DNA of 64,000 nucleotides from a virus. Under the pieces are notes generated by a model, which was given only the letters and a program-made list of their open reading frames with translations, had not been told where the DNA came from and ran no database searches. Shown piece after piece: positions 10,778 through 62,107 of the stretch (positions are counted from its first letter, which is position 1; each line of letters starts with the position of its first letter). The DNA is taken from positions 1 to 64,000 of IMG/VR virus record IMGVR_UViG_651324045_000004; one strand, 5' to 3'. Made by a program: the position numbers and the translations under genes.

Positions 10778-11890
10778 ATGTCCACAGGCAAAAAAAAGAA
10801 GAAAGAAAACATACCGTTAATCGATGATGATGACGCGATCGACGAAAGTGTTCCGGCGTTATTCACAGGCGACCTCACCCCTAACAGCAACAATACCGTA
10901 CAACCCATTGCGTTGATGAGACTTGGATTGTTCGTTCCCACGCTCAAAGGCACGAAGAATAGTAAACGAAATAACTCCAACCAGATAGACGCCTCAAAAG
11001 AACTGGTGCAACTGGAGGTTGCGAGATCTGAGGGTTATTCCGATATCAAAATAACCGGCCCACGTCTCGATATGGATCACGACTTCAAGACGTGGGTTGG
11101 TGTCGTCCGATCACTTGCCGAGTATGGGGAGGCCAGTGGGCGCGTTGAGCTAAGCATCACGAAGTTTGCCAAGTTCTGTGGGTATCCATCTTCCCAGATA
11201 CGCAAGACGCTGCGAGACAGGATTACGAACAGCCTGCTGAAGATAATGCGCACAACGCTTTCGTTCCAGCGCACATACGAAGAGAAGAACGTGGACGGCT
11301 CGAACAAGATATCTCTGCTCATGGTTCATCTGGTGAATAGCGTGGATTACAATGAGAAAAATGACACCATCATATTTCACGCCGAACCAAAGCTGTCAGA
11401 GCTATACCGGTTTGACCACAAAGTTCTTCTCCAACTGAAGGTCATCAACAAACTTCCACGTAAAGAAACCGCCCAGGCGCTATACACCTTCATTGAAAGT
11501 CTTCCGGCGCGGCCGGCGCCAATATCTCTGGCTCGTTTGCGTGCGAGGTTGAATCTGAATAGCTCAAGCATCAGCTCCCAAAATCAGACCATTCGAAACG
11601 GTCTGAAGTCTCTTAAAGAGCTTGGCTACCTCGATTACTCAGAGGTGAAGCGTGGTCGCTCTGTATTTATTCAGATTCATGGACGCAACCCGAAACTTAA
11701 AGTCATTGGTGAAGAGAAGCCGTCGAAGCCTGAGAAGCCTGCAGAGCAAGTGGAAGGGCCACAAGAGAACGGCGAGCTGGAAGTCGTAAAACAAAACATG
11801 ATCAAGAAGATAGCTGAACTTTCTGCGGATTTGACGCCTGAGAATATAAAGCTAATTGAGATACTTAGTAACGGTCTGAAGTTGCTTTGA
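10778..11890 (+). CDS. repA: Iteron-binding plasmid replication initiator (RepA-like, P1/RepFIB-type architecture)
   Basis: 370-aa plus-strand gene flanked by iteron arrays on both sides, with a DnaA box and GATC cluster upstream. A terminator follows inside the downstream iterons. Confidence 0.75.
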   Translation: MSTGKKKKKENIPLIDDDDAIDESVPALFTGDLTPNSNNTVQPIALMRLGLFVPTLKGTKNSKRNNSNQIDASKELVQLEVARSEGYSDIKITGPRLDMDHDFKTWVGVVRSLAEYGEASGRVELSITKFAKFCGYPSSQIRKTLRDRITNSLLKIMRTTLSFQRTYEEKNVDGSNKISLLMVHLVNSVDYNEKNDTIIFHAEPKLSELYRFDHKVLLQLKVINKLPRKETAQALYTFIESLPARPAPISLARLRARLNLNSSSISSQNQTIRNGLKSLKELGYLDYSEVKRGRSVFIQIHGRNPKLKVIGEEKPSKPEKPAEQVEGPQENGELEVVKQNMIKKIAELSADLTPENIKLIEILSNGLKLL

Positions 11891-13269: not shown

Positions 13270-13370
13270 GTGCTTTCCTTTGTTGTAATAAACAAGTTGT
13301 TATCTTATGTGTCTAAATGAGGTTGCAAAAATAAGTGACACGGTCACAGAATTATCTTTCTACTCACCTA

Positions 13371-13568
13371 TTACTCTGTAATGTCACTGTTTTTTACCTC
13401 TGTGAATGTGCCATGAAGGGACGCAGCAAAAAAGACGAACGTATCGCGACCGAAGTCGTCTTTCGTGTGTATAGCCTGCCCATCAGCGTCTGAGTAACCG
13501 GAGTATGTTTTCCCCGGAGTAAACCAGTTGATGCCTGGGCGTGTGCCGGTGCATTCGATAGTGATCAT
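13371..13568 (-). CDS. hypothetical protein
   Basis: 65-aa ORF in the minus-strand gene series. Confidence 0.35.
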   Translation of the reverse strand: MITIECTGTRPGINWFTPGKTYSGYSDADGQAIHTKDDFGRDTFVFFAASLHGTFTEVKNSDITE

Positions 13569-13613
13569 GTTTTGCCTTTTATAGTTACAACATACTTTTA
13601 GGTAAGAGCTACA

Positions 13614-13766
13614 TCACGCAGCAGCCGCGGATTTTTCTTGGCGTTGCTTTAGCACGCATTCGGCGTGAATGACTCGGAATCGACCTGCGAAGCGTTCAAA
13701 ATGGCCTTCACCTTTGGCGACCCAATTTTTGCAGTAGTAGCAGCAACCTGGATATTTGTTACGCAT
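13614..13766 (-). CDS. small Cys-rich (zinc-ribbon-like) protein, 50 aa, below the ORF-track length cutoff
   Basis: My own translation: MRNKYPGCCYYCKNWVAKGEGHFERFAGRFRVIHAECVLKQRQEKSAAAA. It is preceded by AAAGGACACCAAATG, which resembles the window-wide conserved RBS. Confidence 0.35.
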   Translation of the reverse strand: MRNKYPGCCYYCKNWVAKGEGHFERFAGRFRVIHAECVLKQRQEKSAAAA

Positions 13767-13849
13767 TTGGTGTCCTTTCGTGCTTAGTGGAGAACGTGTT
13801 TAAAAAGGCTTCCTGCTGGTGGGCGCTCAACTCGCCGTTGAGCTGGATA

Positions 13850-14587
13850 TTAGGCGTCATCACGAGCCTCCAGCATAAGTCTGATTGACTCGTTGAGATC
13901 GATGTCTGGCGCTGAAGTTATTTGCTCAAGACCCAGACGCATCGCGGCACCAGCCACATACGCCTCAACCTCTGCTTTGCCAGCTGAGACGATGTTATCG
14001 ACAGCTTCCTGCGTGAGTTCCGCGCCGAACGCCATATTGCCTGGAAGATTGATTACCGCTCTGGACAGTGATTCGTAAATGGCGCGGAGATCGCGCTTGC
14101 CAGCCTTACCGGTAGCAATCAACGCACCGAGCTGGTCGACGAGATTCTCGATGTCGGCAACGTCTTTCCGAACCCGTGCAGCAATATCTTTAGAGAACCG
14201 CTCGTGCATCGTCTCAGCCTTCTCTATTTCGGGAAGGTGAACCAGCTTTCCGTCGCGGATCGATGAAAGAGTACATGGGACGCCCTCGCCAACGCCGAAA
14301 CTGGACACCATCGCCGCCCACTGTGCTGCGCTGAGTTGAACCACCATAAGAGCGCTACGGTCTTCTGACTTTGTGATCCGGTAGCTGTAGCCATCTCGTT
14401 CGATAGCCGCTCGATGGAACGTTAATTCAATCAGCTCACTATGATCGATGTCTGAGTCGAACAGATTTGTACCGGACGAACTGACCCGGCCAACACGCAC
14501 CAGGCCAAACGCTGGGTGCGTCACCATATCCCGGCCTTTGAACGATTCGCCGCTTCTCTCTTCAGGCTTCTGTTTAATTCTCGCCAT
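13850..14587 (-). CDS. hypothetical protein (the ORF-track start at 14602 is a GTG; the ATG at 14587, MARIKQ, is more likely)
   Basis: About 245-aa ORF immediately downstream of the HUH Rep-like gene and a small zinc-ribbon ORF. No motif recognised. Confidence 0.5.
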   Translation of the reverse strand: MARIKQKPEERSGESFKGRDMVTHPAFGLVRVGRVSSSGTNLFDSDIDHSELIELTFHRAAIERDGYSYRITKSEDRSALMVVQLSAAQWAAMVSSFGVGEGVPCTLSSIRDGKLVHLPEIEKAETMHERFSKDIAARVRKDVADIENLVDQLGALIATGKAGKRDLRAIYESLSRAVINLPGNMAFGAELTQEAVDNIVSAGKAEVEAYVAGAAMRLGLEQITSAPDIDLNESIRLMLEARDDA

Positions 14588-14723
14588 TGTCTTCTCCTTC
14601 ACACATTACGGGGTTTGAATCAGGCTCTGAGTAGTCGTAAGTTTCAGAGTCTGCATTGGGGCAGTGGATGACTCTCTGGTAGCCGTCACCCTCCATGGTT
14701 TCACCACAGTTCTTACAGACCAT
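14574..14723 (-). CDS. small CxxC...HC...C zinc-ribbon protein, 49 aa, translationally coupled to the upstream HUH gene
   Basis: My own translation: MVCKNCGETMEGDGYQRVIHCPNADSETYDYSEPDSNPVMCEGEDNGEN. Its ATG is embedded in the last codons of the upstream gene (TATGGTCTGTAA) and its stop overlaps the next gene. Confidence 0.35.
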   Translation of the reverse strand: MVCKNCGETMEGDGYQRVIHCPNADSETYDYSEPDSNPVMCEGEDNGEN

Positions 14724-15426
14724 AAAAATCTCTGCTCACCTCTGCGGTATCAAACTTGGACTCCACCCAACCTCTTGAACAACCTGTGACGCTAATTACT
14801 GACCAATCCTTGCCCGTTGCTATTGTTCTGGCGTTGAACTCGTCCGGCGTCTGTTTCGACATGTAGTTAAATAGCCCGTGGGCATCGTAGACGGGTCTGG
14901 CGTCATGCTTGATTCTGGCGTTGGGGTTCTTCGGCGTTTTCTTTAGCCAATAACGGATAACCCCCTCTGCAAATGCCTCCACCTCTGCGGGCGTATTTCC
15001 GGGGATATTGGCGACAAGGTGAATATGCGGCATCCTCTCGTGCTCTGCCCATTCCAGCGCGTAGATATATTCTGCGCTGGCGGTTCTTAGACGCTTTATT
15101 AACCCTGTCATTGCCTCGTTGAAATATTCCGGTTCAATGTCGCACAAAGGCTTCAGCGTGAAGAAGTAAGGCGTGCCGGGTGTTTTGTTCAGATCGATAA
15201 GGCGGGCGTTTTTCCTGAACGTTATACGCTTTGCCGCGCTGTGCGAGAGCCGTCTGGCTTTTCTTTCGGCTTTGCCTGCTTCCATTAATGCCCGATGCTC
15301 CGCTGTAATGGTATGTCCTTTTCTGAACGCACCCACGCGAGCCACGCGGCCAGTTTTGGGTGTAGATACTTCCTCAATCGGTACGGCAATCAGGTTTTTG
15401 TCGATCCACGATTTATTCATACACAC
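14713..15426 (-). CDS. HUH-superfamily rolling-circle replication initiator-like protein (pC194/Rep_trans-like motifs)
   Basis: Motif I YFFTLKP, motif II (HUH) MPHIHLVANI, motif III Tyr/Lys NYMSKQ. The AAACAAGTTGTT palindrome lies upstream and a bidirectional terminator beyond it. Confidence 0.55.
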   Translation of the reverse strand: MCMNKSWIDKNLIAVPIEEVSTPKTGRVARVGAFRKGHTITAEHRALMEAGKAERKARRLSHSAAKRITFRKNARLIDLNKTPGTPYFFTLKPLCDIEPEYFNEAMTGLIKRLRTASAEYIYALEWAEHERMPHIHLVANIPGNTPAEVEAFAEGVIRYWLKKTPKNPNARIKHDARPVYDAHGLFNYMSKQTPDEFNARTIATGKDWSVISVTGCSRGWVESKFDTAEVSRDFYGL

Positions 15427-15465
15427 TCTCTAAACAAGTTGTTTTCTTATGGCTGATATTTTACG

Positions 15466-15500
15466 GAGAAAGAAAAGGCGCCAGAAGTGGCGCCTTTGGG
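15466..15500. terminator. Bidirectional rho-independent terminator (AAAAGGCGCCAGAAGTGGCGCCTTT)
   Basis: Perfect GC-rich hairpin flanked by A- and T-tracts between the SPFH and HUH transcription units. Confidence 0.6.
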
Positions 15501-15509
15501 ACTGTTCGA

Positions 15510-16337
15510 TTACTTGACGGTAACGAATGGGGTACTGGTCCCTGCGGTCATATACTGCGGTAGGGTGCCATTCCACTTATTGATGGCCTCCAGCTGCATA
15601 ACTTCCGGGTTCTGGCGGAGAGCCTCGCCGCGGATGCGGATAGATTCAGCATCAGCCTTAGCCAGAGTTTCCTTGGCGTCAGCTTCACCCGCTGCCTGAG
15701 CGCGAACCATGTTTGCTTCAGCTTCTTTTTGCTTAACCTGCTGCTCACGTTGCAGCGTGGTCTGGTTCGCCGTTACTTTGGCGTTAATGGACTCGATAAC
15801 GCTCGGCGGGTACTCCGGTTTACCCATCCAAGACAGACTGAGAACCTGAATTCCAACCGGCCCCATTTCGGTCTGAATAGCTTTCAGTGAATTATCCAAA
15901 AGTTCAGTTTTGCCGCCGTCGATAAAGCGGTCAGTGGTCATGCGACTGGCCTGTTTAATCAGTACGTCTGCGATCTTCTGCTTCAGATCGGTTTCGGTGA
16001 TATCGTCGACGCCTTTACGGTAGGTCTGGAAGATGGTGGTGACTTTGGTCGGGTCTACTTTGTAAGTTACACCAATGTGGTAGCCGATCGCTGTACCATC
16101 GCTCATTTGGAAGTTGAAGGCGTCTTCATACGACTTCATCTGCTTGAAGGTAGGGAAGGTGTACAGAGTGGTATTCCAGCCAATCCATTGACGGCCAACG
16201 CCAACAACTTCACCAACACCTTTGTCGTCACCTAATTTGTTGACCTTGATACCCACTTCACCAGGCTTAACGTACTCACAGCCGGTCAGCATGGTCATTG
16301 AGGCTACGATAGCCAGTGCGATAATTCCCTTTTTCAT
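15510..16337 (-). CDS. SPFH/band-7 (stomatin/HflC-like) lipoprotein
   Basis: Lipobox LTGC after the signal peptide. SPFH-like core followed by an E/A/Q-rich coiled coil. Confidence 0.8.
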   Translation of the reverse strand: MKKGIIALAIVASMTMLTGCEYVKPGEVGIKVNKLGDDKGVGEVVGVGRQWIGWNTTLYTFPTFKQMKSYEDAFNFQMSDGTAIGYHIGVTYKVDPTKVTTIFQTYRKGVDDITETDLKQKIADVLIKQASRMTTDRFIDGGKTELLDNSLKAIQTEMGPVGIQVLSLSWMGKPEYPPSVIESINAKVTANQTTLQREQQVKQKEAEANMVRAQAAGEADAKETLAKADAESIRIRGEALRQNPEVMQLEAINKWNGTLPQYMTAGTSTPFVTVK

Positions 16338-48673: not shown

Positions 48674-51600
48674 TTAGAAAATCCCCATCCTCACACGGAG
48701 ACGGTTGTTTGAATCATAGACTTCGATTTTACCGTTTGTAATTACCGTTCTGGAACTACCCGGCCCTGAGCCATTTATATTCATCGTTCCATCGCGAGAG
48801 ATTCGCCAACCTCTAACGTTTTCTTGGAAACCCGAACTCATCAAATCACCGACCTTGGCGCTACCTATTGACCCATCCTTGATGAAAGCCGCGTTCATAT
48901 AGGTTACACCATTATCAATCACAAACGGAGTCGTCGTATTGCCGTTCGATGTATTAATTAGCGCGAAGCGGTCTGCCTGAACCAAGAACTGGCTCTGCAT
49001 ATTTTTACCATCAACACCGAGAGCGATACCCGCCGCATACTTCTGCCCGTTGTTGTTGGTTTGCATTTTCACCATCCAGGTACTGTTCAGCGCGTCATTG
49101 TTTGAAACAGCCTCTTGCAGCGTCTGGATAGATGCAGATTGACTATTCAATGATGCGGTCATGTCAGTCTGCGTTTTTGCCATTGCGCTAATCTGAGTCG
49201 CCTGAGTCGCCTGAGTCGATTTGATAGACGCGATACTCGTTGTCGCCGAGTTCAGATCAGCCTGGTTTTTGATGTTGGCCGAAGCCTGGGCATCAATCTG
49301 AGACTGAAGACTGGTGTTCAACGATGCCTGAGTGCTCTGACTGTCCGAAATGGTCTTAGACAGCTGATCCACTTTCGAAGAAGACGCGTCTACCTTCGAC
49401 TGCATGGAAGACAGTTGCGACGTTTGGGCAGTCACTTTCCCATCGATGTCGCTGACCTTCGTCTGCAACGATGAGATTGCTGTTGCGTTTGCATCCGCCG
49501 TAGCCTGTGCATCCGCAGCATCAGTGATATCGGTAATGACGAAATCATCAATGTACACCGCGTATCCAGGTGTGTTGGAGCCACTCTGACCACGAGTAGA
49601 AATCCATACATGGCTACGGGTAACGCTCGGACTCACTTTCACTACACCAGTAAACTTAACCCACTGGTCGCGACCGCCAAGACCAGCCTCGTTGAACGTA
49701 ATGCCCTGCCAGTCATTCCCACCATCTTTGTTGATGGAGTGCAGACCAACGACCACAGTCCAGCCAGACGGCGGGGCTTCACTTGCCGGCATCATAGCCC
49801 AAAACTCAACGCGATATTTCGCGCTCTGGCGTACCGCAGAATAAGAGCCGATCGTCTTGTCGGAATTCCCACTGGTATTGGCCGGGCGAGTAACCTTCAG
49901 ACATTTGTTGCCGCTGCTCTTGAAGTCCGTCGTAACAATCGCAGTGCTGCCGCCCAACTGCTGATTGTTGTCATAGGTTTCGAAAGTACCGTCGATCCAC
50001 GGGTTACTCTGGACCTTCAGCGTATTCAGGCTACTCTTCAGGTCAGTGACACTGTCGCTCGCAGAAGACAAGTCTTTGCCTTGCTGCGTAACCGTGTTCT
50101 GCAGTGACTGAAGTGCCGAAGCGTCGGCCTTGCCAGAAACCGTGTTATTCAACGAATTAAGGCTATTGCTCAGATTCGTGATGCTTCCGGTGTGACTGGA
50201 AACAGTACCTTCTGCACTGGTAACTCGCGAAGTCAGACTAGCAACCGCATTGCTCGTCGCGTTGATGTTCACTATGTCAGTGATATCGATGAAGTAAAAA
50301 TCATCGAAATACTGATTACCTGATTTGAGGGACGAGTTGATAGAGACATCAACACTACCAGATACCGTCGCCTTCCAAGTCCCGGAGATCTCCTTCCAGG
50401 TCGAGCCAGTAGGAAGGTCTGTCGGCTTAAACATGAAATCAGCGAGCAGAGACGAGTTGCCGATACGCAGTTTGTTATTGCTCTGATTATCGACAACGGT
50501 GCCAGACTGACAGCGAGCAAACACGCCGATTTTGTAGGTGCGATCTTTCGTCACTGCGATGCTTTGGGAGACTGTCCCCGTACCGGCCCCACATGACAGG
50601 ATCTTACTTCCCGAATTTGGCGACTGAGCATCAATAACCTTTATAAATGACGCGCCGCCGCTGAAACCTTCCAGACCGCGCTCAAACGATGAGTTGGTCA
50701 GAAGGTTTCCAATGATTTTTTTCGACGCGTCACTGTCCGCAACCAGATTGGCAAGTCCGGTATTCGTGGCACTCAGGCTGTTCTGCAGGTTGGTGACATT
50801 ACCGCTCTGCGTGGAAATATCCTTACCTTGCTGTGTTACCGTGTTCTGGAGTGACTGAAGCGCCGTTGCGTCAGCTTTCTTGTCGATGTTGCTGTTCGCT
50901 GCTACCAGTCCATTCTGGAGACTCGTGATTGCGCTACTGGACGAGGTAATATCTTTACCTTGCTGCGTTACTGTGTTCTGGAGTGTGGTAATCGCCGATG
51001 CGTTTGCATCTGCTTTCATCATCACGCCACCAGCTGCTCCAAGCCCCATCATTACGCCGTTCACGAACTCGACTGAGGTCGAAATGTGGGCGGTGCCGTC
51101 GCCACCGGTTGGCGCACGCAGTTCCAGACCATCGCCCGGTTTCATGCCTTTGCGGCCAAGGAGGATATAGGCACCACGATACGGCAGAGAGTTGACTACT
51201 TCGGATGTACCACCAAGAGATTCCAGAGCAGACAATATCTTACCTCGGTTGCCAGATGGCTCATCGAATGTCAGGACGCAAACGTAAGTGCCACTAGCCA
51301 ACGCCTCGATATCAGCCGACATCGTGGCGCCATTATTCGCGCTACCAAAGACATCGTATGTTTTGGAGGTCGCAATCACCGTTGATCCGTCGCTTTGTTT
51401 TGCAAAAGTGACCAACGCCCAGCTGCGACCAGGGGTAAACAGGTTCTTGCCGCTTTCATCAAAAACCCCAGGAGTTACGCTGTTGCCATTCCCTTTCGCC
51501 GTTACCGTAAATACAGTGCGACGAGTCAGTGACGCTTGCATGGAGGTAATGTTAGTGCCAGCGGCAGAAATGTCTTTTCCCTGCTGCGTGACGGTGTTCT

Positions 51601-54600
51601 GAAGTGTCTGAACCGTAGTGGAATCAGCCTTCTTAGACACGTTGTCATTCGTCGTCTTCAGACTGTTTTCCAGAGATGTCGTCCGACCGCCCACAGAGCT
51701 GATTGCATCACCCTGCGTCTGAACCGTACTGGTCAGCGAATCAATAGCGGAACTATTGGCCATAGTTCCTGCGTCTCGACGAGTGACGACGACGTTATAG
51801 ACTGTCAGACTCGCGGTAGCGCCAGTGTTCGGTTGCAGCCTTGCTGTGGTCGCGCCGACAGGAACGACAAACGTACCGCTTACAGCCTTCTTCTCACCAG
51901 CTTGATAACTCAAGTTGCTTGCGTAGATGGTGGCGTTAGAGAGACTAGGGCCGTCAAAACGCAACCCCCATCCCACAGTAATTGCCTGACCCGCAAGACA
52001 CATCATGCTTAAATCCAGTGTATCACCCGGTGTCACTTCAAACAGTGGTGAGACTGGCTGCCATCCAGCTGAACTATTTACAGCCGCGTAACCGTCGACA
52101 GTTGTCGCCGCCCCACCCCAGCCCTGTGCGCCGTTGAGCATCTTGGCGTTAGGGATGAGGTTGGCGCCAGACGTCAGACTATTCTCGATGGACGTCACAC
52201 GAGTTCCCTGGCTGGAAATATCTTTGCCCTGCTGCGTCACCGAGTTCTGTAGCGTCTGAAGCGCAGCTGAATCAGCCTTTGTCGAAACCAGATTGTTAGT
52301 GGTCGACAAATCACCCTGAAGCTTAGTGATCGCGGTATTCTGCGTGGAGATATTGTCTTCAGTTTTCTGGACACGAGAGGTCACAGACTGAATGGAGCTG
52401 CTATTCGCATCAACCGTAGTCTTCAGCGATGACAGATCGTTAGACGATGCCATATCGCTCGGCGCCGGAGACCACTCTGTAGGCATATTGCCAACTTCCA
52501 GCTTAGGGCTGGTGATAGAGACAGTCTGATCTTTCGTCGAAGATGCTTGGATGCGTGCAAGGATTATTCTCTTAGATCCAGTTCCCGGCTTCTGTTTCCA
52601 CTTAACCCAATAACGAACCCACTCAGTTGTCAAAGTGAATGACATACGACCATCAACACTGCCGTCTGACACACCTTGACTACTAACCCCAGATGTCGTC
52701 GAGTTAGGGTTGTAGAAGTAAGCGGTCATGCTTTGACCGTTCTCACCACCTTTTGCAAAGAAACTGTAAACGTACTCTGCATTGTCGACTGGAGCGTCGA
52801 GAGTAATCTCCTTGAGATCTCGGTAGGAACTGCCCGCTTTAGTAGTCGCGCTAATCACCGCATTGCCACGGAAGATTTCATTGGTTTTACCAGACCACCC
52901 GGCCATGTCGCCTGAGTTTTTGATCAGGTTGACGCCACCAATAGAAACGTTACTTAGTGCGTTGCTGAGATTCGTAACACTGTCGCTTTGGCTTGCAATA
53001 TCCTTACCTTGCTGAGTAACCGTGTTTTGCAGCGTCTGAAGAGCCGAAGCGTCCGCTTTCTTAGCCACAGCAGAGTCGGTATCACTCAGACTGTTCTTCA
53101 GAGAGGTGATCGCCGCGCTGTTGCTTGAAGTCTGATCTCCAACCTTATTGACATTCGAGTTGATCGAATTAATTGCCGTAGACAGAGAAGAAACACCCAG
53201 ACCGGAATATAGTTCGGCAACTTTGTCACCCAGCTTGAAGCCCAGATTAATATAGGCGTTTCCCGTCCACTGATTCACCAAAAATTCAACGGTGTTCCAG
53301 CCCGAAGACAGTACAAAGCCAAGAGTAGCGGTGCCTGATATAGCGACTGCCTGACGCACGCCATTAACGTACACAGCGCCAGAATCATCAAATACGCGAG
53401 AACCCGGAGACACCGAGATGGTGGTATCCGCAGCAACACGAACCATTGCCTTGTAGTGCGCAACTACATATGAACCTGCACCCGAGAAATCCAGTTTTGC
53501 GGCGTCGGCAACTTCATCCATGAATACCGGGGAAAGTCCCTGAATATCGCTAAATGTAGGCTCAGCAGCGGCGCTGGATAACTGGCATTTATAGATGCGG
53601 CGTGACCAGGTGCCTTGCTTGCCGTTAACAATCTGATTAGACAGAGCGGTGATATTGCTGGTGTTAGAAGCAACATCTTTTCCCTGCTGATTGACGGCAT
53701 TTTGCAACGTTTGCAGTGCTGATGCATCGGCCTTTGTGCCAATGGCTTTGTTTGCCGTAGCCAGGCCATTATTCAGGGTTGTGATGCTGTCGCCCTGCGA
53801 GGTGATGCTGTCACCTTGCTTGGACACGGTCGTCTGTAGCGTCGACACCGCACTCGCCGTCGCATCGGCTGTCTGCTGCGCATTGTAGGCATCAGTGACA
53901 TCGGTGATGACGAGATCGTCGATCAGGAAGGAGTTTCCAGCCTTAACGCTGCTAACGTTAGGAATAGAAATACGCGCCATCGCCTGCTTGATGCCGCTCT
54001 TACTACTTTTCAGATAGCCACTGACTTTCGTCCAAGAGTCGGCGGACAGATCTTTCGCCGACTTAATGAGCGCCGGCCACTGCCACGAGTTGTCCTGGTA
54101 CTGCAACGACATCCCGATCGCAATCTGAACTGCCCCGTCCATCGTCGTGCTCTTAGCATCCAACTTCACCCAGCACTCAACATAAAACACCGCATTATCT
54201 CGAACCTGGAATCCGCTGAAAATGTGGTTATCACTGTTGTCGGTCGCATTGGCATTGTAGTCGTTCGGACGCGTCACACGGATACATTTGTTTCCGCCGT
54301 GAGAATCGTCAGTAGTCACGATGACGCGACCATTGGTGATATTGTACCCGCTCGAATAGCTCTCGAACGTCCCGTCTGGCAGGATGTTTGCGCCGCGCTT
54401 AGACTGCTGATTCAGCGAGCTGTTCAACGAAGTGATGGCGTCACTGCTGCTGCTAATCTTATCTTCGGCATTACTAACCCGAGTGGAGAGGTTATTTAAA
54501 GCTGTCGCATCCGCTTTCTTAGCCACATCACCCTTTACAGTGTCAACGGTGTTGGTCAGAGTCGTGATTGCATTGCCTTGGCTGATCAGCGTTTTACCCT

Positions 54601-57600
54601 GATCAGTAACGGTGTTCTGCAACGTCTGCAACGCAGAGGCGTCTGCCTTTTTCGACACATCGGTCTTCGTAGAAGTCAGATCGTTTTGTAGCTTGGTGAT
54701 CGACGTTCCCTGAGAACTAACCGTGTCACCTTGCTTGGTCACTTTCGTTGACAGATCGCTCAACGCGCTGGCCGTTGCATCGTTATTGACTGCATCAGTA
54801 ATATCGAACACCTGGAATGAATCAATCCAGATTTCCGCGTTACTTGGGTGGCAGTAGATACCAAAAGCCTGACCATCCGCGCCAGTTCTCGGAGAGAAAG
54901 ACGTATCCCATGTAATAGTCTGCCAGTCGCTCGTTAGCGTGACGTTTTTATCTTCGTAATTACCCTCAGCAGACCCATTGAAGTTCCAGCGGCGCAGAAG
55001 CATGTTCATCGAACCCGACACACCCTTGGCGCGAACGATATAGCGGAATTTGCGAGAGCCATTTACCGGGGTTGGTTTTTTACCATTGGCAAAAAGACCC
55101 GGAGAGGTTGCATTCACTTTCAGCATTCGAGCGCCAGCCGAGTTTTCACCGTATGCACCAAATGCAACAATGCTGCCTGTCGTGCCGCTGTTCTGCTGCG
55201 TCCTGAACGCTGAGCCATCACCTTCAAGATTGGCATCCTGAATCAGATTGTCGCCCATGTTCGTCATGGCGCCGACGCTGTTGTTCAGACTGGTGATCGC
55301 GTCACTGGCTGAAGTGATGTCCTTACCCTGCTGCGTTACTGTATTCTGGAGGGTATCCACCGCAGATGCGTCTGCCTTCTTCGAGACGTTCGCGTCTGTG
55401 GTCTTGAGATTGTTTTCCAGGTTCGTTGTGCGATTACCAACGCTGCTCAAATCTTTGCCCTGCTGCGTCACCGTACTCTGTAACGAAGACAGCGCAGAAG
55501 AGTCCGCTTTTTTAGCAACGTTTGCATCAGTTGTCGCCAGACTATTCTTCAGTAAAGAAATATCGCTGGACGCCGACGTTATATCCTTGCCCTGCTGAGT
55601 CACTGTGTTCTGCAGCGAGGCCAGTGCAGAGGCATCCGCCTTCTTGCTAACGTTAGCATTCGTCGCGGTCAGCTCATTCTGAAGCTGGGTGATGCTGTTG
55701 CCTTGAGACGTGATTGAGCCTTCGGCTTTAGTCACACGGCTATCAAGACTACTCAGCGCCTGACTATTGCCAGAAATCGCGTCAGACAGATCCTCGGAAG
55801 CCGGCGACCACGAGGTGCCCTTATTCCCTTCTTCCAGTTTCACCTGGTAGATCTGACAACCGGTCTTCTGGGACTTATCTTCAAACAGGAATCGCAATCC
55901 GGCAACGCCTACGAAAAGCGTCGAACCAGATTCAGCTGTAATTGTTCCAACCCATTTGTACAAGTCACCATCACGCGTAACGATGCCGTTCTGCGAATAG
56001 TAACGCAGAGACCATGAGTCAGTCCCGACAGCGGAACGACCGATGACTGCAGAAGTGAACGGCTTAGTTGTTCCGAAGCCATCCGCGTACTCTTTAAACC
56101 AAAGAGTCATCGTGTACTGAGTTTTAACAGCGATATTTTTACCAACCAGACCCGTAATCGCTTTCAGCTCATAACTGGTGAAGCCGGAAGTCGGAGACAG
56201 ACACAGAGCCGGGGCGCCGCTCTTATCGGAGTTACGAAGAAGGTTGCTCGCGCCAATAGACAAGCTATCAACGTCGTTTTTAAGCTGGGTGATACTGTTA
56301 CCCTGAGACGAAATGGAGCTACCCTGCTGCGTCACGGTGTTCTGGAGAGCGTTCAGCGCCGTCGCATCAGCTTTCTTTGCAACGTTGGCATTGGTGGTGC
56401 TCAGGTTGTTCTGCAGGCTTGCAATGCTGCTTGAGGCTGAAGCAATGTCTTTGCCCTGCTGGGTAACCGTATTTTGCAGCGTAGACAGCGCCTGTGCATC
56501 TGCCTTATTCGCTAGATTAGCGTTGGTCTGTTCGAGGCTGTTTCGCAGATCAGTAACGCTCTGCGAGGTGCTCGTGACGCGATCACCTACGGTGCTGACG
56601 TTTGAGGTGACGGCGCTAATGGCATTCGAAAGCGCGTTCATCCCAAGAGCAGAATTCAGCTGGGCTACCTTCTCGGACAGTTTAAAGCCGAGGTTAATGT
56701 AAGCCTGACCAGTCCATTGGTTTACCAGGAACTCAACCGTGCTCCAGCCAGCTTTCAGATCAAAGCTAACCGTATTCCAGCCTGCATTACCAAAGGCAAC
56801 CCTAACACCGTTCACGTACACGGCGCCCGTATCATCAAAAACACGGGACCCTGGTGCCATAGTGATGGTGGTATCAGCATTAACCTTCACGAAGGCTTTG
56901 TAATGCGCGATCACGTAACTGCCGGCGCTCGCAAAGTCCAGTTTTGCCGCGTCAGGAACCTCATCGATCGAGATTGGCGCCTTACCGTTGATATCGCTAA
57001 AAGTCGGCTCGGTGGTATTGTTCGCCAGTTGTACGCTGTATACGCTACGCACCCACATGTTCTGGCGGCCGTTAACCATCTGGTTTGACAGCGAAGTGAT
57101 GCTGGTGGACTGCGACGCAATATCTTTACCCTGCTGGGTTACAGTATTCTGGAGAGAAGACAATGCGGAGGCGTTGGCGTCGATTTTGACACTATCTGTC
57201 ACATCGATGACATAGAAATCATCAAAGCAACGACTCCCGGCTGTCAAATAGTTACTCAGCGTAACCGGAAGCTTGGCTGTCTCCGTAGCCTTCCAGCGAC
57301 CGGAAATCAGCGTCCAGTCGGAACCGATCGTCCCGCTATTGTACGGTCGCTCAAACACCGGCTGACCAGCGGAGTTACCGATCCGCAGTTTGTTGTTGCC
57401 TGCTCCGTTATCAGTGGTCGCTCCGAGATCCTTAACCCATACCCCGATTTCATACGTCCGACCCTGTACAAAGCTTACATACTGTCCCGGTGACACATTA
57501 CCAGCATCAACCTTCAGCGCCCGTGTCCCACCATGTGGAGTGGAAATCTCAACCACACTGGTTGCCGCTGACCGTCCGGTATAACCATCCAGTCCTCGCT

Positions 57601-60600
57601 CAAACGACGGGTTTACGATGAGGTTATTCGGCATCGCGGCGGACGCGTCAGTATCGGCGATCGCGTTGTTCAGTGAGTTGTTCAGTTGAACGATGCTGTC
57701 CGCCTGGCTGGATGCTTTATCCTCGGTTGCGCTAACACGAGATGTCAGATCATTGACCGCAGTCGCGTCCGCCTTCTTCGCCACATTGCTGTTTGTGGTG
57801 TCGAGAGACGTTTTGAGATTGGTGATGCTGCTATTCGCGGCGGAAATGTCTTTACCCTGCTGCGTCACTGTTCCCTGCAGTGCGGTCAGCGCTGTCTGGT
57901 CGGCCTTTTTACTAACATTGGCGTTGGTAGTGCTCAGGTCATTTTGCAGTTTGGTGATCGACTGACCCTGAGTCGAAATGCTCGAACCCTGCTGATCCAC
58001 TGACGTCTTCAGAGTCTGCAATGCAGAAGCGTCAGCCTTGTCCTTCAGGGATGATTTAAGACCGGTGATGTCCGACGCCATCGCTTTATCCTGAGTGTTC
58101 AGGGTGTCGAGGGACTTGTTGATGTTAGAGACGCTGTCGTCCACCTTTGTCTCAAGAGACTGGCGAGCCATGGCCTCTGCCTTATCCGCGGTGACACGCG
58201 CCAGCTGCTCCTGGAAGATAAGACCGGAACCCACTTTAGAAAGATCATTGCCTTCGTAAGATCCGCGCATCTGGACGGCCAAGGCATTGCGGTTCGCAGC
58301 TTCAGCGGCATCAGCGTCCACACGAGCGGACTTCTCATCCTGCAGAGCGGCCATGCCGGCGCCAGGCGTCGGGCGCCCTACTGCAACCCAGTCAATCAAC
58401 AGGTTGTTTGTGTCGCTCTGGTTCTTCAGGAAATCAAACCGGAAACGGCGAATGGTCGTGGAAGCCCGCCAGTCAATGTCGTGAATGGTCAGCGTGGCAA
58501 CGCCATTAGCATCATATTCTGGCTCGTCGATAACGAGAGAGCGAGACTCACTCCAGCCCTGCTCTGATGCCCCGATCCAGTACAGTTTGCCTGACCATGT
58601 CGGTTTACCTACTTTCTTGATGCGCAGCTTTAGGAAACGATAGGCATTGGCGTCGATAACCATGTTATTTGGCGAGCGGCAAGAAGCTGTGCTGTTTGAA
58701 GACTTCAACCAACCATCATCGGTAACGGACATTGGGACAGTGCCACCGTCGTCTTCTGTCCATCCCTCACTGTTGGTATCAAAGTACCAAATTTTCAGGC
58801 TATCGAACTGTTCACCGGTGCCAGCGGCAATCTGGGAAATTTGCTGAGCCAGAGATTCGTTAACCGTCTGCACCTGCGTAGACAAGTTGCTAATCTCGGA
58901 CTGGCGATTATTCTTCTCTTGAAGAAGAGCGTCAGCACGGGCGCGTGCTTCGTCCTCAATGCTCGAAATTCGATTTAAGGTTTCGGTATTGATTGCGTTT
59001 GCAGTTTTGATGTCCAGTGCGGAAACGGCCGACGCACGATCTCTGGCTTCTTTGCTGATTTTTGCATCGAGTGCGGCTGTTGCGTCCGAGACAGCCTTCG
59101 CACGGTTACTTGCTTCAACCGCAACGGAGTCTGTAATCGCTGAGGCACGAGCAATCGCTTCATCGGAGACAGCTTTCGCGCGCGCGGTCGCTTCATCGGC
59201 AACGGCTTTGGTTCGAGCCTCCACTTCCGCCGCAATCGCATTGGTACGCGCGGTTACTTCGTTTGAGATGGCAGTGGCGCGTATAGACGCCTCATCTGCG
59301 ATAGCTTTATTACGTGCGGTCGTTTCATTAGCAATGGCTTGTGCGCGATCCTTAGTCTCTTTGTCGATGGCGGTGCTTAGCGCTTCCTTGGCCGACTTGA
59401 CAGCGTTAGCCGCCTCAGTGCGAGCGTCATCAACCTGGGCCTTAGTCTCACTTTTCGCTTCATCTATGGCCGCGTCCACCTCCGTCGCCACAGCCTTGCT
59501 GTTAATGTCAGCAATCAGATCCTGACCCAGCTCGGACTCGGTGATTTTATTTTGCAGGAACGAAAGAACGTCGCGCGTCGTTGCGACCGTCGCTAGTGGA
59601 GAGTTCAGCGCACTGAGCATTCCACGTTTGTTGGCTGCACGTACCCAATAATACCAGGTGACAGAGTCTTCAAGACCGTTGTGACTGAAGGTTGTGCCAG
59701 ATACCTTGGCAATCAGCTGCGCTTTAGACTTATCGTTGGTCTTGGATGCCAGAACCTCGATGTGATCCAAGTCAACGGAAGCCGGGTTTACCCAATTCAG
59801 AACAATTGAACGATAATCGCCTACCGCAGTTAGACCGGTCGGGGCATCAGGCGCCGTCATGGTTCCCAGAACTTTGTAGGTGATGCTGATAGGATCAGTT
59901 TTGCGACCACCAACAGAAACAGCGTACACCTGGAAGTCGTACTGGCCGTTCTCCGCTACTCCACGAAGTTCGAACTGTTCTTCAGTTACGCGCTCAGATT
60001 TCCAGTTTGAAACATTCCCGGCATCGGAGCGGCGCCAGCTGATGTAATACTGAGCCGACTTGCCCTGCCATGTAGCGGTCAGAGAAACGGACAAGTTACC
60101 CGGAGAGGACAGATAAGTGCCTTCGGTAATCGCCAGACCTGACGGCTTTGAGAACGTTGGGTCAAGAACGGTCGTATTTTGCGGGATCAGCTGTGCGCCG
60201 CTATCAATAGCTTCGTATTTGGTCGGGTTGTTCTGAATAGCCGTGATATTGAACGACGTACCATCGTCACCCTCAGCAACGCTCACAACGCGTGCTTGTA
60301 GCGGAGTTAAGTCTGGTTGAGCAATGACCCACACTGCATCGCTTACCGGCGTCTCATTGGAGCTGAGAGCGGTTTTAAACGTGACGGTGGTGATGTTCTT
60401 CCCATTCTCCAAAATATCACGCCCAACCATTTTCCCTTCTGCGCTGAGGAAGGTGATATGGTTTCCAACTGAAGTCAGATCAACCGGAGCGTCCAGCTTG
60501 ATGCTATTGGAGGTGTAGCCGATAATACGACCACTGTTGCGACGGCCAGCGCGGAATTTATCTGCGATCAGCACGATGTCGCCAGGCATCAGGAATACAG

Positions 60601-62107
60601 AGTCCATACCTACTGCAAAGGTGATGACGTCAGATTCCATGCGAGATGTGTAGAGCGTCCAGAGACCAACACGATGCGCCTGGCCGCGTGAAGTACAGCC
60701 GAATGCGACTGACTCAGTTTTGCGGATGCCATAGCGTTTAATCGCTTCCTGATCTTCTACATACTCGACGCTCTGCTTGTAACCGTCCTCTTTGTTGTTG
60801 TAGGTGATAAGAGCAACGGAATAGCGATCTTTACGCGCCGAACCTTTGTATGCAAATGAGCCATTTACCACGTTGCTGTTGGAGAACAGCATCACAGGGT
60901 CTGCTGGAGAATCCTGCGTGATGTGAACCATGCCACCAGCCCAATAAACCATGCCACGGAATGCCCCTGCGATGTCCTGCACGACGCGATAAGCATCTTG
61001 GCGACTGGTAATCTGGGTGTTGATTGCGAAGCGCTTCTCTTTGCCACCGAAGCCATCATCAACGAACGCATCACAGTAGCGACCAATCTGATACAGCTCG
61101 CCGATGTTAATCATCGACTCCTGAACAAACTGACCCAGACCGTAACGAGTGTTCGTCAGCAAGTCGAAGAGAATCCACGCCGGGTTGGAGGATGATGCCA
61201 GCTTAAATGTACCGTCCCAATTGCCGTCGTAGGAGTTCGTGTCAGCGTTATAGTTTGACGGGACACGAATTTTCAAACCTTTAATCAGGTATGAACGAGT
61301 CGGCATTGAAGAACCGAACTGCTCTGAGTTGATTTTCAGGCCAACGAGCGCAGAGTTCGGATAGTTCAGGCTGGTATTGACAATCTCACCGATCGAATCG
61401 ATGTAGGTGTCATCGTAGAGATAGCTGTTATCGGTATGATCTTCAGTCAGACGAATGGCACGCAGAGTATATGCCTTTGCCGGCTTCGGTAAGTCCAGAA
61501 CATAACTACGGTAATAAACACCTGTCTTTTTCGCGGTCAGAGAAATGGTTGCGTTGGATTCTCCCTCTGCAACAACGTCAACAAAGCCGCCGCCATTACC
61601 TGCGTCGATCTGGAATTTAAACTGGACTGTCGTACCGTTAGTATCGCCGCTCTTTTTATCGATGCTGCGAAGTGAAGGAAACTTCATCACCACACGAACG
61701 CGATCGCTGTCCGCAGAATCCAGAGACACGTTAACCTGGCTCGTTTGCTTCAATTGACGCCCTACTGATTTCGGCGTTTCAATGAAGTCAAAACCATCGA
61801 TGACACTTTGATCCTGAGAACCGTCGCGGAACCACCAGGTTACACCGCTGAAGTTGTAGGAATTGTCGCTATTCTGGAGCGGCGTGTCGTTCAGGAAGAT
61901 GGATTTTGCCCCATCAATCAGACCACCGATAACACCCTCACCCAGCAAATCCAATACAGAAGCCATAGCGCGGCTGTTTACCGTGTCATTAGCCTCCACT
62001 GGCGTCCTTGAGCTACCGCCACCCTTACTGCCGCCGCGTCCTGAGATAATCAGGCCGTGCGCGACTAATTGCGAGAGACGGCTTTTTTTGAAATTTGGAA
62101 CTTCCAT
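48674..62107 (-). CDS. Giant central tail fiber / tail tip protein. It is a homolog of lambda gpJ, with about 3000 aa of inserted repetitive fibrous and carbohydrate-binding-like modules (4477 aa).
   Basis: Collinear with lambda J over the N-terminal roughly 1150 aa (LNDTPLQ...GVTWWF, NSALVGLKINSEQFGS, PSNYN...WDGTF, FGCTSRGQAHRVGLW). The C-terminal roughly 150 aa is also J-like. The interior has dozens of about 33-aa repeats (QNTVTQQGKDI...TTNANVAKKADA) and repeated NPSFE...FDDFYVIDVTD modules. Confidence 0.95.
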   Translation of the reverse strand: MEVPNFKKSRLSQLVAHGLIISGRGGSKGGGSSRTPVEANDTVNSRAMASVLDLLGEGVIGGLIDGAKSIFLNDTPLQNSDNSYNFSGVTWWFRDGSQDQSVIDGFDFIETPKSVGRQLKQTSQVNVSLDSADSDRVRVVMKFPSLRSIDKKSGDTNGTTVQFKFQIDAGNGGGFVDVVAEGESNATISLTAKKTGVYYRSYVLDLPKPAKAYTLRAIRLTEDHTDNSYLYDDTYIDSIGEIVNTSLNYPNSALVGLKINSEQFGSSMPTRSYLIKGLKIRVPSNYNADTNSYDGNWDGTFKLASSSNPAWILFDLLTNTRYGLGQFVQESMINIGELYQIGRYCDAFVDDGFGGKEKRFAINTQITSRQDAYRVVQDIAGAFRGMVYWAGGMVHITQDSPADPVMLFSNSNVVNGSFAYKGSARKDRYSVALITYNNKEDGYKQSVEYVEDQEAIKRYGIRKTESVAFGCTSRGQAHRVGLWTLYTSRMESDVITFAVGMDSVFLMPGDIVLIADKFRAGRRNSGRIIGYTSNSIKLDAPVDLTSVGNHITFLSAEGKMVGRDILENGKNITTVTFKTALSSNETPVSDAVWVIAQPDLTPLQARVVSVAEGDDGTSFNITAIQNNPTKYEAIDSGAQLIPQNTTVLDPTFSKPSGLAITEGTYLSSPGNLSVSLTATWQGKSAQYYISWRRSDAGNVSNWKSERVTEEQFELRGVAENGQYDFQVYAVSVGGRKTDPISITYKVLGTMTAPDAPTGLTAVGDYRSIVLNWVNPASVDLDHIEVLASKTNDKSKAQLIAKVSGTTFSHNGLEDSVTWYYWVRAANKRGMLSALNSPLATVATTRDVLSFLQNKITESELGQDLIADINSKAVATEVDAAIDEAKSETKAQVDDARTEAANAVKSAKEALSTAIDKETKDRAQAIANETTARNKAIADEASIRATAISNEVTARTNAIAAEVEARTKAVADEATARAKAVSDEAIARASAITDSVAVEASNRAKAVSDATAALDAKISKEARDRASAVSALDIKTANAINTETLNRISSIEDEARARADALLQEKNNRQSEISNLSTQVQTVNESLAQQISQIAAGTGEQFDSLKIWYFDTNSEGWTEDDGGTVPMSVTDDGWLKSSNSTASCRSPNNMVIDANAYRFLKLRIKKVGKPTWSGKLYWIGASEQGWSESRSLVIDEPEYDANGVATLTIHDIDWRASTTIRRFRFDFLKNQSDTNNLLIDWVAVGRPTPGAGMAALQDEKSARVDADAAEAANRNALAVQMRGSYEGNDLSKVGSGLIFQEQLARVTADKAEAMARQSLETKVDDSVSNINKSLDTLNTQDKAMASDITGLKSSLKDKADASALQTLKTSVDQQGSSISTQGQSITKLQNDLSTTNANVSKKADQTALTALQGTVTQQGKDISAANSSITNLKTSLDTTNSNVAKKADATAVNDLTSRVSATEDKASSQADSIVQLNNSLNNAIADTDASAAMPNNLIVNPSFERGLDGYTGRSAATSVVEISTPHGGTRALKVDAGNVSPGQYVSFVQGRTYEIGVWVKDLGATTDNGAGNNKLRIGNSAGQPVFERPYNSGTIGSDWTLISGRWKATETAKLPVTLSNYLTAGSRCFDDFYVIDVTDSVKIDANASALSSLQNTVTQQGKDIASQSTSITSLSNQMVNGRQNMWVRSVYSVQLANNTTEPTFSDINGKAPISIDEVPDAAKLDFASAGSYVIAHYKAFVKVNADTTITMAPGSRVFDDTGAVYVNGVRVAFGNAGWNTVSFDLKAGWSTVEFLVNQWTGQAYINLGFKLSEKVAQLNSALGMNALSNAISAVTSNVSTVGDRVTSTSQSVTDLRNSLEQTNANLANKADAQALSTLQNTVTQQGKDIASASSSIASLQNNLSTTNANVAKKADATALNALQNTVTQQGSSISSQGNSITQLKNDVDSLSIGASNLLRNSDKSGAPALCLSPTSGFTSYELKAITGLVGKNIAVKTQYTMTLWFKEYADGFGTTKPFTSAVIGRSAVGTDSWSLRYYSQNGIVTRDGDLYKWVGTITAESGSTLFVGVAGLRFLFEDKSQKTGCQIYQVKLEEGNKGTSWSPASEDLSDAISGNSQALSSLDSRVTKAEGSITSQGNSITQLQNELTATNANVSKKADASALASLQNTVTQQGKDITSASSDISLLKNSLATTDANVAKKADSSALSSLQSTVTQQGKDLSSVGNRTTNLENNLKTTDANVSKKADASAVDTLQNTVTQQGKDITSASDAITSLNNSVGAMTNMGDNLIQDANLEGDGSAFRTQQNSGTTGSIVAFGAYGENSAGARMLKVNATSPGLFANGKKPTPVNGSRKFRYIVRAKGVSGSMNMLLRRWNFNGSAEGNYEDKNVTLTSDWQTITWDTSFSPRTGADGQAFGIYCHPSNAEIWIDSFQVFDITDAVNNDATASALSDLSTKVTKQGDTVSSQGTSITKLQNDLTSTKTDVSKKADASALQTLQNTVTDQGKTLISQGNAITTLTNTVDTVKGDVAKKADATALNNLSTRVSNAEDKISSSSDAITSLNSSLNQQSKRGANILPDGTFESYSSGYNITNGRVIVTTDDSHGGNKCIRVTRPNDYNANATDNSDNHIFSGFQVRDNAVFYVECWVKLDAKSTTMDGAVQIAIGMSLQYQDNSWQWPALIKSAKDLSADSWTKVSGYLKSSKSGIKQAMARISIPNVSSVKAGNSFLIDDLVITDVTDAYNAQQTADATASAVSTLQTTVSKQGDSITSQGDSITTLNNGLATANKAIGTKADASALQTLQNAVNQQGKDVASNTSNITALSNQIVNGKQGTWSRRIYKCQLSSAAAEPTFSDIQGLSPVFMDEVADAAKLDFSGAGSYVVAHYKAMVRVAADTTISVSPGSRVFDDSGAVYVNGVRQAVAISGTATLGFVLSSGWNTVEFLVNQWTGNAYINLGFKLGDKVAELYSGLGVSSLSTAINSINSNVNKVGDQTSSNSAAITSLKNSLSDTDSAVAKKADASALQTLQNTVTQQGKDIASQSDSVTNLSNALSNVSIGGVNLIKNSGDMAGWSGKTNEIFRGNAVISATTKAGSSYRDLKEITLDAPVDNAEYVYSFFAKGGENGQSMTAYFYNPNSTTSGVSSQGVSDGSVDGRMSFTLTTEWVRYWVKWKQKPGTGSKRIILARIQASSTKDQTVSITSPKLEVGNMPTEWSPAPSDMASSNDLSSLKTTVDANSSSIQSVTSRVQKTEDNISTQNTAITKLQGDLSTTNNLVSTKADSAALQTLQNSVTQQGKDISSQGTRVTSIENSLTSGANLIPNAKMLNGAQGWGGAATTVDGYAAVNSSAGWQPVSPLFEVTPGDTLDLSMMCLAGQAITVGWGLRFDGPSLSNATIYASNLSYQAGEKKAVSGTFVVPVGATTARLQPNTGATASLTVYNVVVTRRDAGTMANSSAIDSLTSTVQTQGDAISSVGGRTTSLENSLKTTNDNVSKKADSTTVQTLQNTVTQQGKDISAAGTNITSMQASLTRRTVFTVTAKGNGNSVTPGVFDESGKNLFTPGRSWALVTFAKQSDGSTVIATSKTYDVFGSANNGATMSADIEALASGTYVCVLTFDEPSGNRGKILSALESLGGTSEVVNSLPYRGAYILLGRKGMKPGDGLELRAPTGGDGTAHISTSVEFVNGVMMGLGAAGGVMMKADANASAITTLQNTVTQQGKDITSSSSAITSLQNGLVAANSNIDKKADATALQSLQNTVTQQGKDISTQSGNVTNLQNSLSATNTGLANLVADSDASKKIIGNLLTNSSFERGLEGFSGGASFIKVIDAQSPNSGSKILSCGAGTGTVSQSIAVTKDRTYKIGVFARCQSGTVVDNQSNNKLRIGNSSLLADFMFKPTDLPTGSTWKEISGTWKATVSGSVDVSINSSLKSGNQYFDDFYFIDITDIVNINATSNAVASLTSRVTSAEGTVSSHTGSITNLSNSLNSLNNTVSGKADASALQSLQNTVTQQGKDLSSASDSVTDLKSSLNTLKVQSNPWIDGTFETYDNNQQLGGSTAIVTTDFKSSGNKCLKVTRPANTSGNSDKTIGSYSAVRQSAKYRVEFWAMMPASEAPPSGWTVVVGLHSINKDGGNDWQGITFNEAGLGGRDQWVKFTGVVKVSPSVTRSHVWISTRGQSGSNTPGYAVYIDDFVITDITDAADAQATADANATAISSLQTKVSDIDGKVTAQTSQLSSMQSKVDASSSKVDQLSKTISDSQSTQASLNTSLQSQIDAQASANIKNQADLNSATTSIASIKSTQATQATQISAMAKTQTDMTASLNSQSASIQTLQEAVSNNDALNSTWMVKMQTNNNGQKYAAGIALGVDGKNMQSQFLVQADRFALINTSNGNTTTPFVIDNGVTYMNAAFIKDGSIGSAKVGDLMSSGFQENVRGWRISRDGTMNINGSGPGSSRTVITNGKIEVYDSNNRLRVRMGIF

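Follow-up and report, generated by a model that had tools for sequence, protein, structure and literature searches.

The stretch of DNA analysed here, called the window throughout, comprises positions 1 to 64,000 of the virus record IMGVR_UViG_651324045_000004 and is, judged by its sequence, part of a Klebsiella SSU5-like phage-plasmid. It carries on the minus strand an open reading frame (ORF) of 237 amino acids (aa) that contains the nuclease motifs of His-U-His (HUH) rolling-circle replication initiator proteins (Reps). This ORF is probably a recent recombination relic, a captured internal fragment of a rep gene, and not a second replication system. In the course of events that we propose, 157 nt in the centre of a native 85-aa gene (phrog_13902) would have been swapped for a 605-nt internal segment of rep from a small co-resident element, through illegitimate recombination at microhomologies of 4-5 nt. 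Comparison with related plasmids shows that the original insert was longer and was subsequently trimmed by two different deletions in sister lineages. The resulting fusion protein has the native start and keeps the whole HUH nickase core. The phage-plasmid replicates with its own RepA, DNA polymerase III (Pol III) alpha, single-stranded DNA-binding protein (SSB), exonuclease and RecA-like genes. The rep fragment itself is most likely a neutral or near-neutral passenger beginning to decay.

Make-up of the chimeric ORF and its junctions

The ORF is assembled from native and foreign segments, as follows.

14713..15426, minus strand: chimeric 237-aa ORF with a GTG start (235 aa from the ATG at 15420)
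15339..15426, minus strand: 5' end of the native 85-aa gene (phrog_13902), with its start codon and upstream signals
14734..15338, minus strand: internal rep fragment of 605 nt (codons 25-226 of 378), containing the whole HUH nuclease core
14630..14733, minus strand: 3' end of the native 85-aa gene and 5' two-thirds of a zinc-ribbon ORF, present in relatives of the L015 type and not in L017

The encoded protein consists of 29 native N-terminal codons, about 201 Rep codons and a five-residue out-of-frame tail (DFYGL); the NCBI annotation of the same ORF in relatives uses the ATG at 15420 and so gives 235 aa. An intact 85-aa gene lies at the same place in the relatives L015, L019 and L020, and the flanks of the window chimera are the first 29 codons and last few nucleotides of this gene, the rep piece standing in place of its middle 157 nt. 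Both junctions have microhomologies of 4-5 nt, GCGTG at the left one and GAGC at the right one, which point to illegitimate recombination. The left junction reads …GGCTCGCGTG up to the breakpoint and GGTGCGTTCAG… beyond it.

Comparison with full-length homologs, which are 367-390 aa long, shows how much of the donor protein has been lost. The first ~30 residues of the window protein are unrelated to them and the match ends at the residues EVSR, some 150 residues early, so that the first 24 and the C-terminal 152 residues of Rep are missing. With only codons 25-226 of a 378-codon gene and a swapped N-terminus, the product does not have the sequence of a full-length initiator. Lacking both ends of Rep, and with no cognate origin found, it would be unable to initiate a rolling-circle replicon here.

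The order of events can be read from the related plasmids. In a sister type, represented by L016, L001 and two more plasmids, the left junction is as in the window and 21-24 extra nucleotides of rep are present, and on the 3' side a deletion has fused the piece, with the frame kept, to the central part of a 103-aa gene. The shared left junction and differing 3' ends indicate one acquisition, followed by two different illegitimate events at the 3' side. The relative L017 (K. michiganensis) is without the 85-aa gene, the rep piece and the 5' part of the zinc-ribbon ORF. In the plasmid database, the rep piece is carried by 5 of the 29 related plasmids.

The HUH nuclease core

The three Rep motifs that the initial annotation of this locus had noticed are present in the expected order in the 237-aa protein, YFFTLKP at residues 87-93, MPHIHLVAN at 132-140 and NYMSKQ at 187-192. 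Residues T90, L91, P133, H134, H136, W160, Y188 and K191 are invariant in homologs down to ~20% identity. Motif I retains T90 and L91 throughout the alignment that includes the ~20%-identity relatives, motif II retains P133-H134-I-H136 both in the close family and when distant relatives are added, and motif III has its YxxK residues, Y188 and K191, invariant across the family, the window copy having kept both. Since homologs keep the motifs, these are no chance matches and the 237-aa protein does contain a true HUH Rep nuclease core; the concern that the His-U-His and Tyr motifs might prove to be unconserved is thereby removed.

The assignment of the protein to the pC194/Rep_trans families did not survive comparison with the curated profiles. 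In a Pfam hmmscan at E <= 1 the sole match was to PF23343 (REP_ORF2-G2P), at 22.7 bits against a cut-off of 27.8, and there was no match to Rep_1 (PF01446), Rep_trans (PF02486) or Phage_CRI (PF05144). The protein resembles the initiators of pC194 (Rep_1) and pT181 (Rep_trans), and those of Phage_CRI, as a nicking initiator type with a catalytic tyrosine, but is unlike them in having no Pfam match to their families. In PHROGs it has a weak match to a 'replication initiation protein' family. Three distant relatives, P0031, P0034 and P0037, exceed the PF23343 cut-off, and P0034 also matches the PHROG family 'rolling circle DNA replication initiation'. When the close family was aligned by hhalign with the PF23343-positive distant Reps, the probability was 99.85% (E 9.5e-31) over window residues 61-234. 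The link of the window protein to the curated family, which lies below the cut-off when made directly, is strong when made transitively through these profile alignments. The window copy nonetheless differs from the PF23343 rolling-circle Reps as a truncated chimera, with a sub-cut-off score, from a narrow and unnamed family.

The narrowness of this Rep family follows from the exhaustive profile search, which recovered only 19 clusters among 1.84 billion representatives. Searching 5.8 billion proteins yielded 21 homologs, from Klebsiella and related enterobacteria. The family carries no name in Pfam, NCBIfam or PHROGs, its profile gave only noise against the sequences of solved structures, and a literature search for PF23343 returned no papers. 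The 237-aa ORF has neither a nucleotide nor a protein match in 50,697 phage records, and megablast found no match in complete E. coli genomes. An AlphaFold2 model of the protein was poor (pLDDT 48), with secondary structure elements in the expected order, beta-alpha-beta-beta-alpha-beta-alpha; the best Foldseek matches, at weak E-values, were to IS200/IS608 transposases and to the Rep nuclease domains of parvoviruses and geminiviruses.

Source of the captured fragment

Window positions 15338..14734 (605 nt) are 94.2% identical in nucleotide sequence to codons 25-226 of the 378-codon rep gene of a Klebsiella chromosomal island, L002. Within this piece, codons 98-218 (363 nt) of the phage-plasmid consensus equal the island gene exactly and all differences lie in the flanks. 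This central identity indicates that the capture was very recent and that the donor allele was near, but not equal to, those sampled. The rest of the 64-kb window has no further similarity to the source islands or plasmids.

The source islands encode a P4-type integrase, AlpA, three small ORFs and Rep, often together with a serine recombinase and cargo genes, and this combination of integrase, AlpA and replication gene in a small island is a satellite-like layout. No capsid- or packaging-related families were found among the island genes in Pfam and PHROGs scans. The source may be merely an integrative plasmid, since related reps sit on small serine-recombinase plasmids. The closer relative P0018, a Rep with 59% identity, is encoded on a 5.6-kb contig, which also carries a resolvase and a helix-turn-helix (HTH) protein, and more distant Reps (~27% identical, with the same motifs) are found on complete circular Klebsiella plasmids of 5.3-6.3 kb. 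Two of these plasmids were examined in detail; each encodes an HTH protein along with a serine recombinase, and neither has been assigned a replicon type. As Rep is the sole annotated candidate replication protein there, it would appear to act as the initiator of these small plasmids. The earlier suggestion of a captured initiator from a satellite or integrative element is close to the mark as to origin, the piece deriving from an island or plasmid rep, but not as to content, since it is an internal fragment only and not an intact initiator.

Positions 7710-12900 of L002, 4519-10431 of L011 and 4485-10637 of L013, and the whole of L010 and L021, represent an uncharacterised family of miniature Klebsiella elements. 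A conserved block of three small ORFs and a ~375-aa HUH Rep is found in the islands, one of which is located between yicC and dinD. These elements could be integrative plasmids or satellite-like elements. A simple exact-repeat scan revealed no attachment-site repeats at the islands. An origin of the source island among the recently described Pseudomonadota integrative mobilizable elements (PIMEs; bioRxiv 10.64898/2026.01.12.698999) was rejected, as these are ~22 kb in size and are defined by repA and trbJ/trbL, which are absent here. A literature search for SSU5 together with 'satellite' returned no papers.

A hairpin, TGGCGGTGAAACCGCC, is conserved in three small plasmid-like elements and duplicated in one of them.

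L010, 5057-5072: hairpin TGGCGGTGAAACCGCC, downstream of rep
L021, 3889-3904 and 3977-3992: hairpin TGGCGGTGAAACCGCC, two copies, downstream of rep
L022, 187-202: hairpin TGGCGGTGAAACCGCC

It lies downstream of rep in those elements where rep was located (L010 and L021), and is a candidate double-strand origin of the small plasmids. The hairpin is absent from the islands and from the window, in the latter case with up to three mismatches allowed. The initial annotation had proposed to look for a nick site or origin hairpin nearby; window positions 13300-15700 contain no notable hairpin or iteron.

Constraint, decay and possible function of the fusion protein

Five copies of the rep piece were compared and differ at 10 variable sites, of which 6 are nonsynonymous and 4 synonymous. 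The L014 copy has K191N in motif III, and the window copy has T170A as well as Q174H and A201T, the last two at sites nearly invariant in the family. These changes lean towards relaxed constraint, in numbers too small for statistics. Immediately 5' of the chimeric ORF there is nothing that resembles a promoter.

Several observations weigh against regarding the ORF as a decaying passenger. With ~10 substitutions between the copies, the 6:4 ratio is without statistical power. The ORF is open in all seven of the copies examined and in frame with the native start, from which it follows that the fusion protein is probably translated. The whole domain shared with distant Reps, residues 61-234, has been kept, and the catalytic residues of the window copy are all intact; given this complete core, a soluble and active nickase is possible. 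Among the rolling-circle Reps of small plasmids, many are 237 aa long or shorter. Finally, an origin may lie inside the retained 605 nt.

Such a protein might be a domesticated truncated nickase, incompetent for initiation, that nicks the donor origin and so interferes with a donor element that is a competing or parasitic co-resident, or mobilises it. The complete core and in-frame fusion to the native start would suit this role, and so would the very recent transfer, from which it can be taken that the source element shared a Klebsiella host with the phage-plasmid, and the satellite-like int-alpA-rep layout and cargo genes of the source islands. We nevertheless consider it unlikely. The fragment is present in so few of the relatives, K191 of motif III is replaced in one copy, the other lineage has a different, fused 3' end, and the ORF is preceded by a terminator-like hairpin and not by a promoter-like site. 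Moreover the protein has no PADLOC match, and the islands share with the window no sequence beyond the rep piece and give no sign of an SSU5-like helper.

Phage ICP1 provides a precedent for such a capture from a satellite, as its Odn nuclease borrowed its DNA-binding domain from the initiator RepA of the satellite PLE (PMC8263062). The two cases are alike in that a phage chimeric ORF contains part of the replication initiator of another element. Odn, however, is conserved and has been experimentally shown to cut the satellite origin (PMC8263062), whereas the window ORF shows signs of decay. By analogy with Odn and PLE, the captured core could be expressed in order to nick or occupy the donor origin, as a Rep-derived weapon or hijacking device, a proposal that we regard as doubtful indeed; were the nickase active against the donor, the conflicts between mobile elements would gain a new example of initiator capture.

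Neighbouring small genes

The chimeric ORF is adjoined by small genes which the initial annotation had grouped with it. The four ORFs that it described are all present on the minus strand, where the overlaps between the 237-aa and 49-aa ORFs, and between the stop of the latter and the 246-aa gene, are as it had reported; it had omitted a further ORF, of 34 aa.

14574..14723, minus strand: 49-aa CxxC...HC...C zinc-ribbon ORF, its ATG overlapping the 3' end of the 237-aa ORF
13850..14590, minus strand: gene of a 246-aa protein (phrog_6452; 250 aa from the GTG at 14602), conserved in SSU5-like phage-plasmids
13759..13863, minus strand: 34-aa ORF between the 246-aa gene and the 50-aa ORF, corresponding to the final third of a 103-aa protein (phrog_1603) of other relatives
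13614..13766, minus strand: 50-aa CCxxC...H..C ORF, annotated by NCBI in L020

The 49-aa ORF, whose stop overlaps the ATG (14590) of the 246-aa gene, occurs in 15 Klebsiella phage-plasmids, whether or not these carry the rep piece. A version with 50-54% identity is encoded by 11 Aeromonas plasmids of 103-135 kb, mostly ~110 kb in size, which are probably SSU5-like phage-plasmids of Aeromonas. The changes in the 49-aa ORF are 3 synonymous and 1 conservative, and on the strength of this distribution and conservation we take it to be a real small accessory gene, independent of rep. The native 85-aa gene of L015 ends in TGATG, which indicates that the upstream overlap and coupling of the 49-aa ORF were inherited from the native gene.

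The 246-aa protein is encoded on contigs of ~104-116 kb, the size of SSU5-like elements, from Klebsiella, E. coli, Salmonella, Enterobacter and Citrobacter. Its model (pLDDT 68) has a beta-rich N-terminal domain and a long coiled coil, and when compared with solved structures gave coiled-coil noise only, with no fold match. The 3' end of its gene and the next ORF occur in two allelic forms among the relatives, in which the next ORF encodes either the 103-aa protein (phrog_1603) or a product of 33/34 aa; the short allele is that of the window and of L017. Several recombination events have made the locus a mosaic. The 50-aa ORF has accumulated ~17 synonymous and 4 nonsynonymous codon changes across eight relatives, a pattern which identifies it as a real small phage protein under purifying selection. 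Its homologs, at 44-62% identity, occur in unrelated Klebsiella, Enterococcus, Brevundimonas and Acinetobacter phages. The phages that carry this family include Klebsiella siphophages of ~58 kb and Enterococcus myophages of ~150 kb, and the gene is often unannotated.

Since the 49-aa and 50-aa ORFs and the 246-aa gene are kept in relatives without the rep piece, these neighbours do not form a cassette with it, and are independent genes which adjoin the insertion by chance. The tight ORF overlaps and the setting in a variable accessory region are what might be expected of a known type of nuclease-based defence or anti-defence cassette, in which the Rep piece, zinc ribbons and 246-aa protein would act jointly. 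This is very improbable, as the parts differ in history and distribution, the four genes do not co-vary across relatives, the overlap between chimera and zinc ribbon was inherited from the native 85-aa gene, and no cassette protein has a match in NCBIfam or to a known defence model in PADLOC.

The host phage-plasmid and its own replication genes

The assignment of the window to the SSU5 group is founded on both the synteny and similarity of its replication and recombination genes and the presence of a plasmid RepA. The stretch from RecA to Pol III has ~68% nucleotide identity to SSU5, Cyrano, pJN2-26 and their relatives, and its gene order matches that of SSU5-group genomes; in contrast to the 94.2% of the rep piece to its island source, the identity of the backbone to SSU5 is only ~70%. 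In the plasmid database the locus is common to 29 Klebsiella plasmids of ~110 kb. The features that bear on replication and on the setting of the chimeric ORF are these.

10778..11890, plus strand: RepA (Rep3_N), the phage-plasmid's own plasmid initiator
15510..16337, minus strand: SPFH/Band 7 lipoprotein gene, conserved in SSU5 and Cyrano
15474..15497, minus strand: strong terminator-like hairpin, 3' of the SPFH lipoprotein gene and directly upstream of the chimeric ORF

Beside RepA, the phage-plasmid has its own genes for Pol III alpha, a 5'-3' exonuclease, a gp32-like SSB and a RecA-like recombinase. The description of the host as a theta-type replicon is borne out by its Rep3_N RepA and its SSU5-like character. 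The variable accessory region begins right after the hairpin at 15474..15497 and extends between the SPFH gene and repA. Elsewhere in the window, a single ORF of 4477 aa occupies 48674..62107 on the minus strand.

That the 237-aa protein provides a second replication mode, starting rolling-circle (sigma) replication of the phage-plasmid, for instance as a source of packaging concatemers, is extremely improbable: its HUH motifs are intact and its gene lies in the replication/recombination region, but the ORF is missing from SSU5, Cyrano and the majority of close relatives, the sequence is foreign and very recently acquired, the protein is truncated, no cognate origin-like sequence was found, and relatives without the ORF exist as complete circular plasmids, which suggests that they replicate and are packaged normally.

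Implications

That plasmids and phage-plasmids exchange genes is well documented (Pfeifer and Rocha; PMC10879196, PMC7969092), and the present case conforms to it, in that the variable, plasmid-like accessory region of an SSU5-group phage-plasmid took up DNA of a co-resident plasmid or island. It differs from the exchanges described there in that the junctions, microhomologies, disrupted gene and later deletions can here be read base by base.

For replication the captured fragment is of little importance, being foreign and no second replicon, and annotation pipelines should not label the 237-aa ORF as a phage replication initiator. The modest value of the locus lies instead in presenting a cleanly resolved and very recent capture by a phage-plasmid, apparently mediated by microhomology and followed by stepwise deletion. 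It also points to an uncharacterised, narrow family of HUH Reps, encoded by mini-islands with a P4-type integrase and with relatives on 5-6 kb Klebsiella plasmids.

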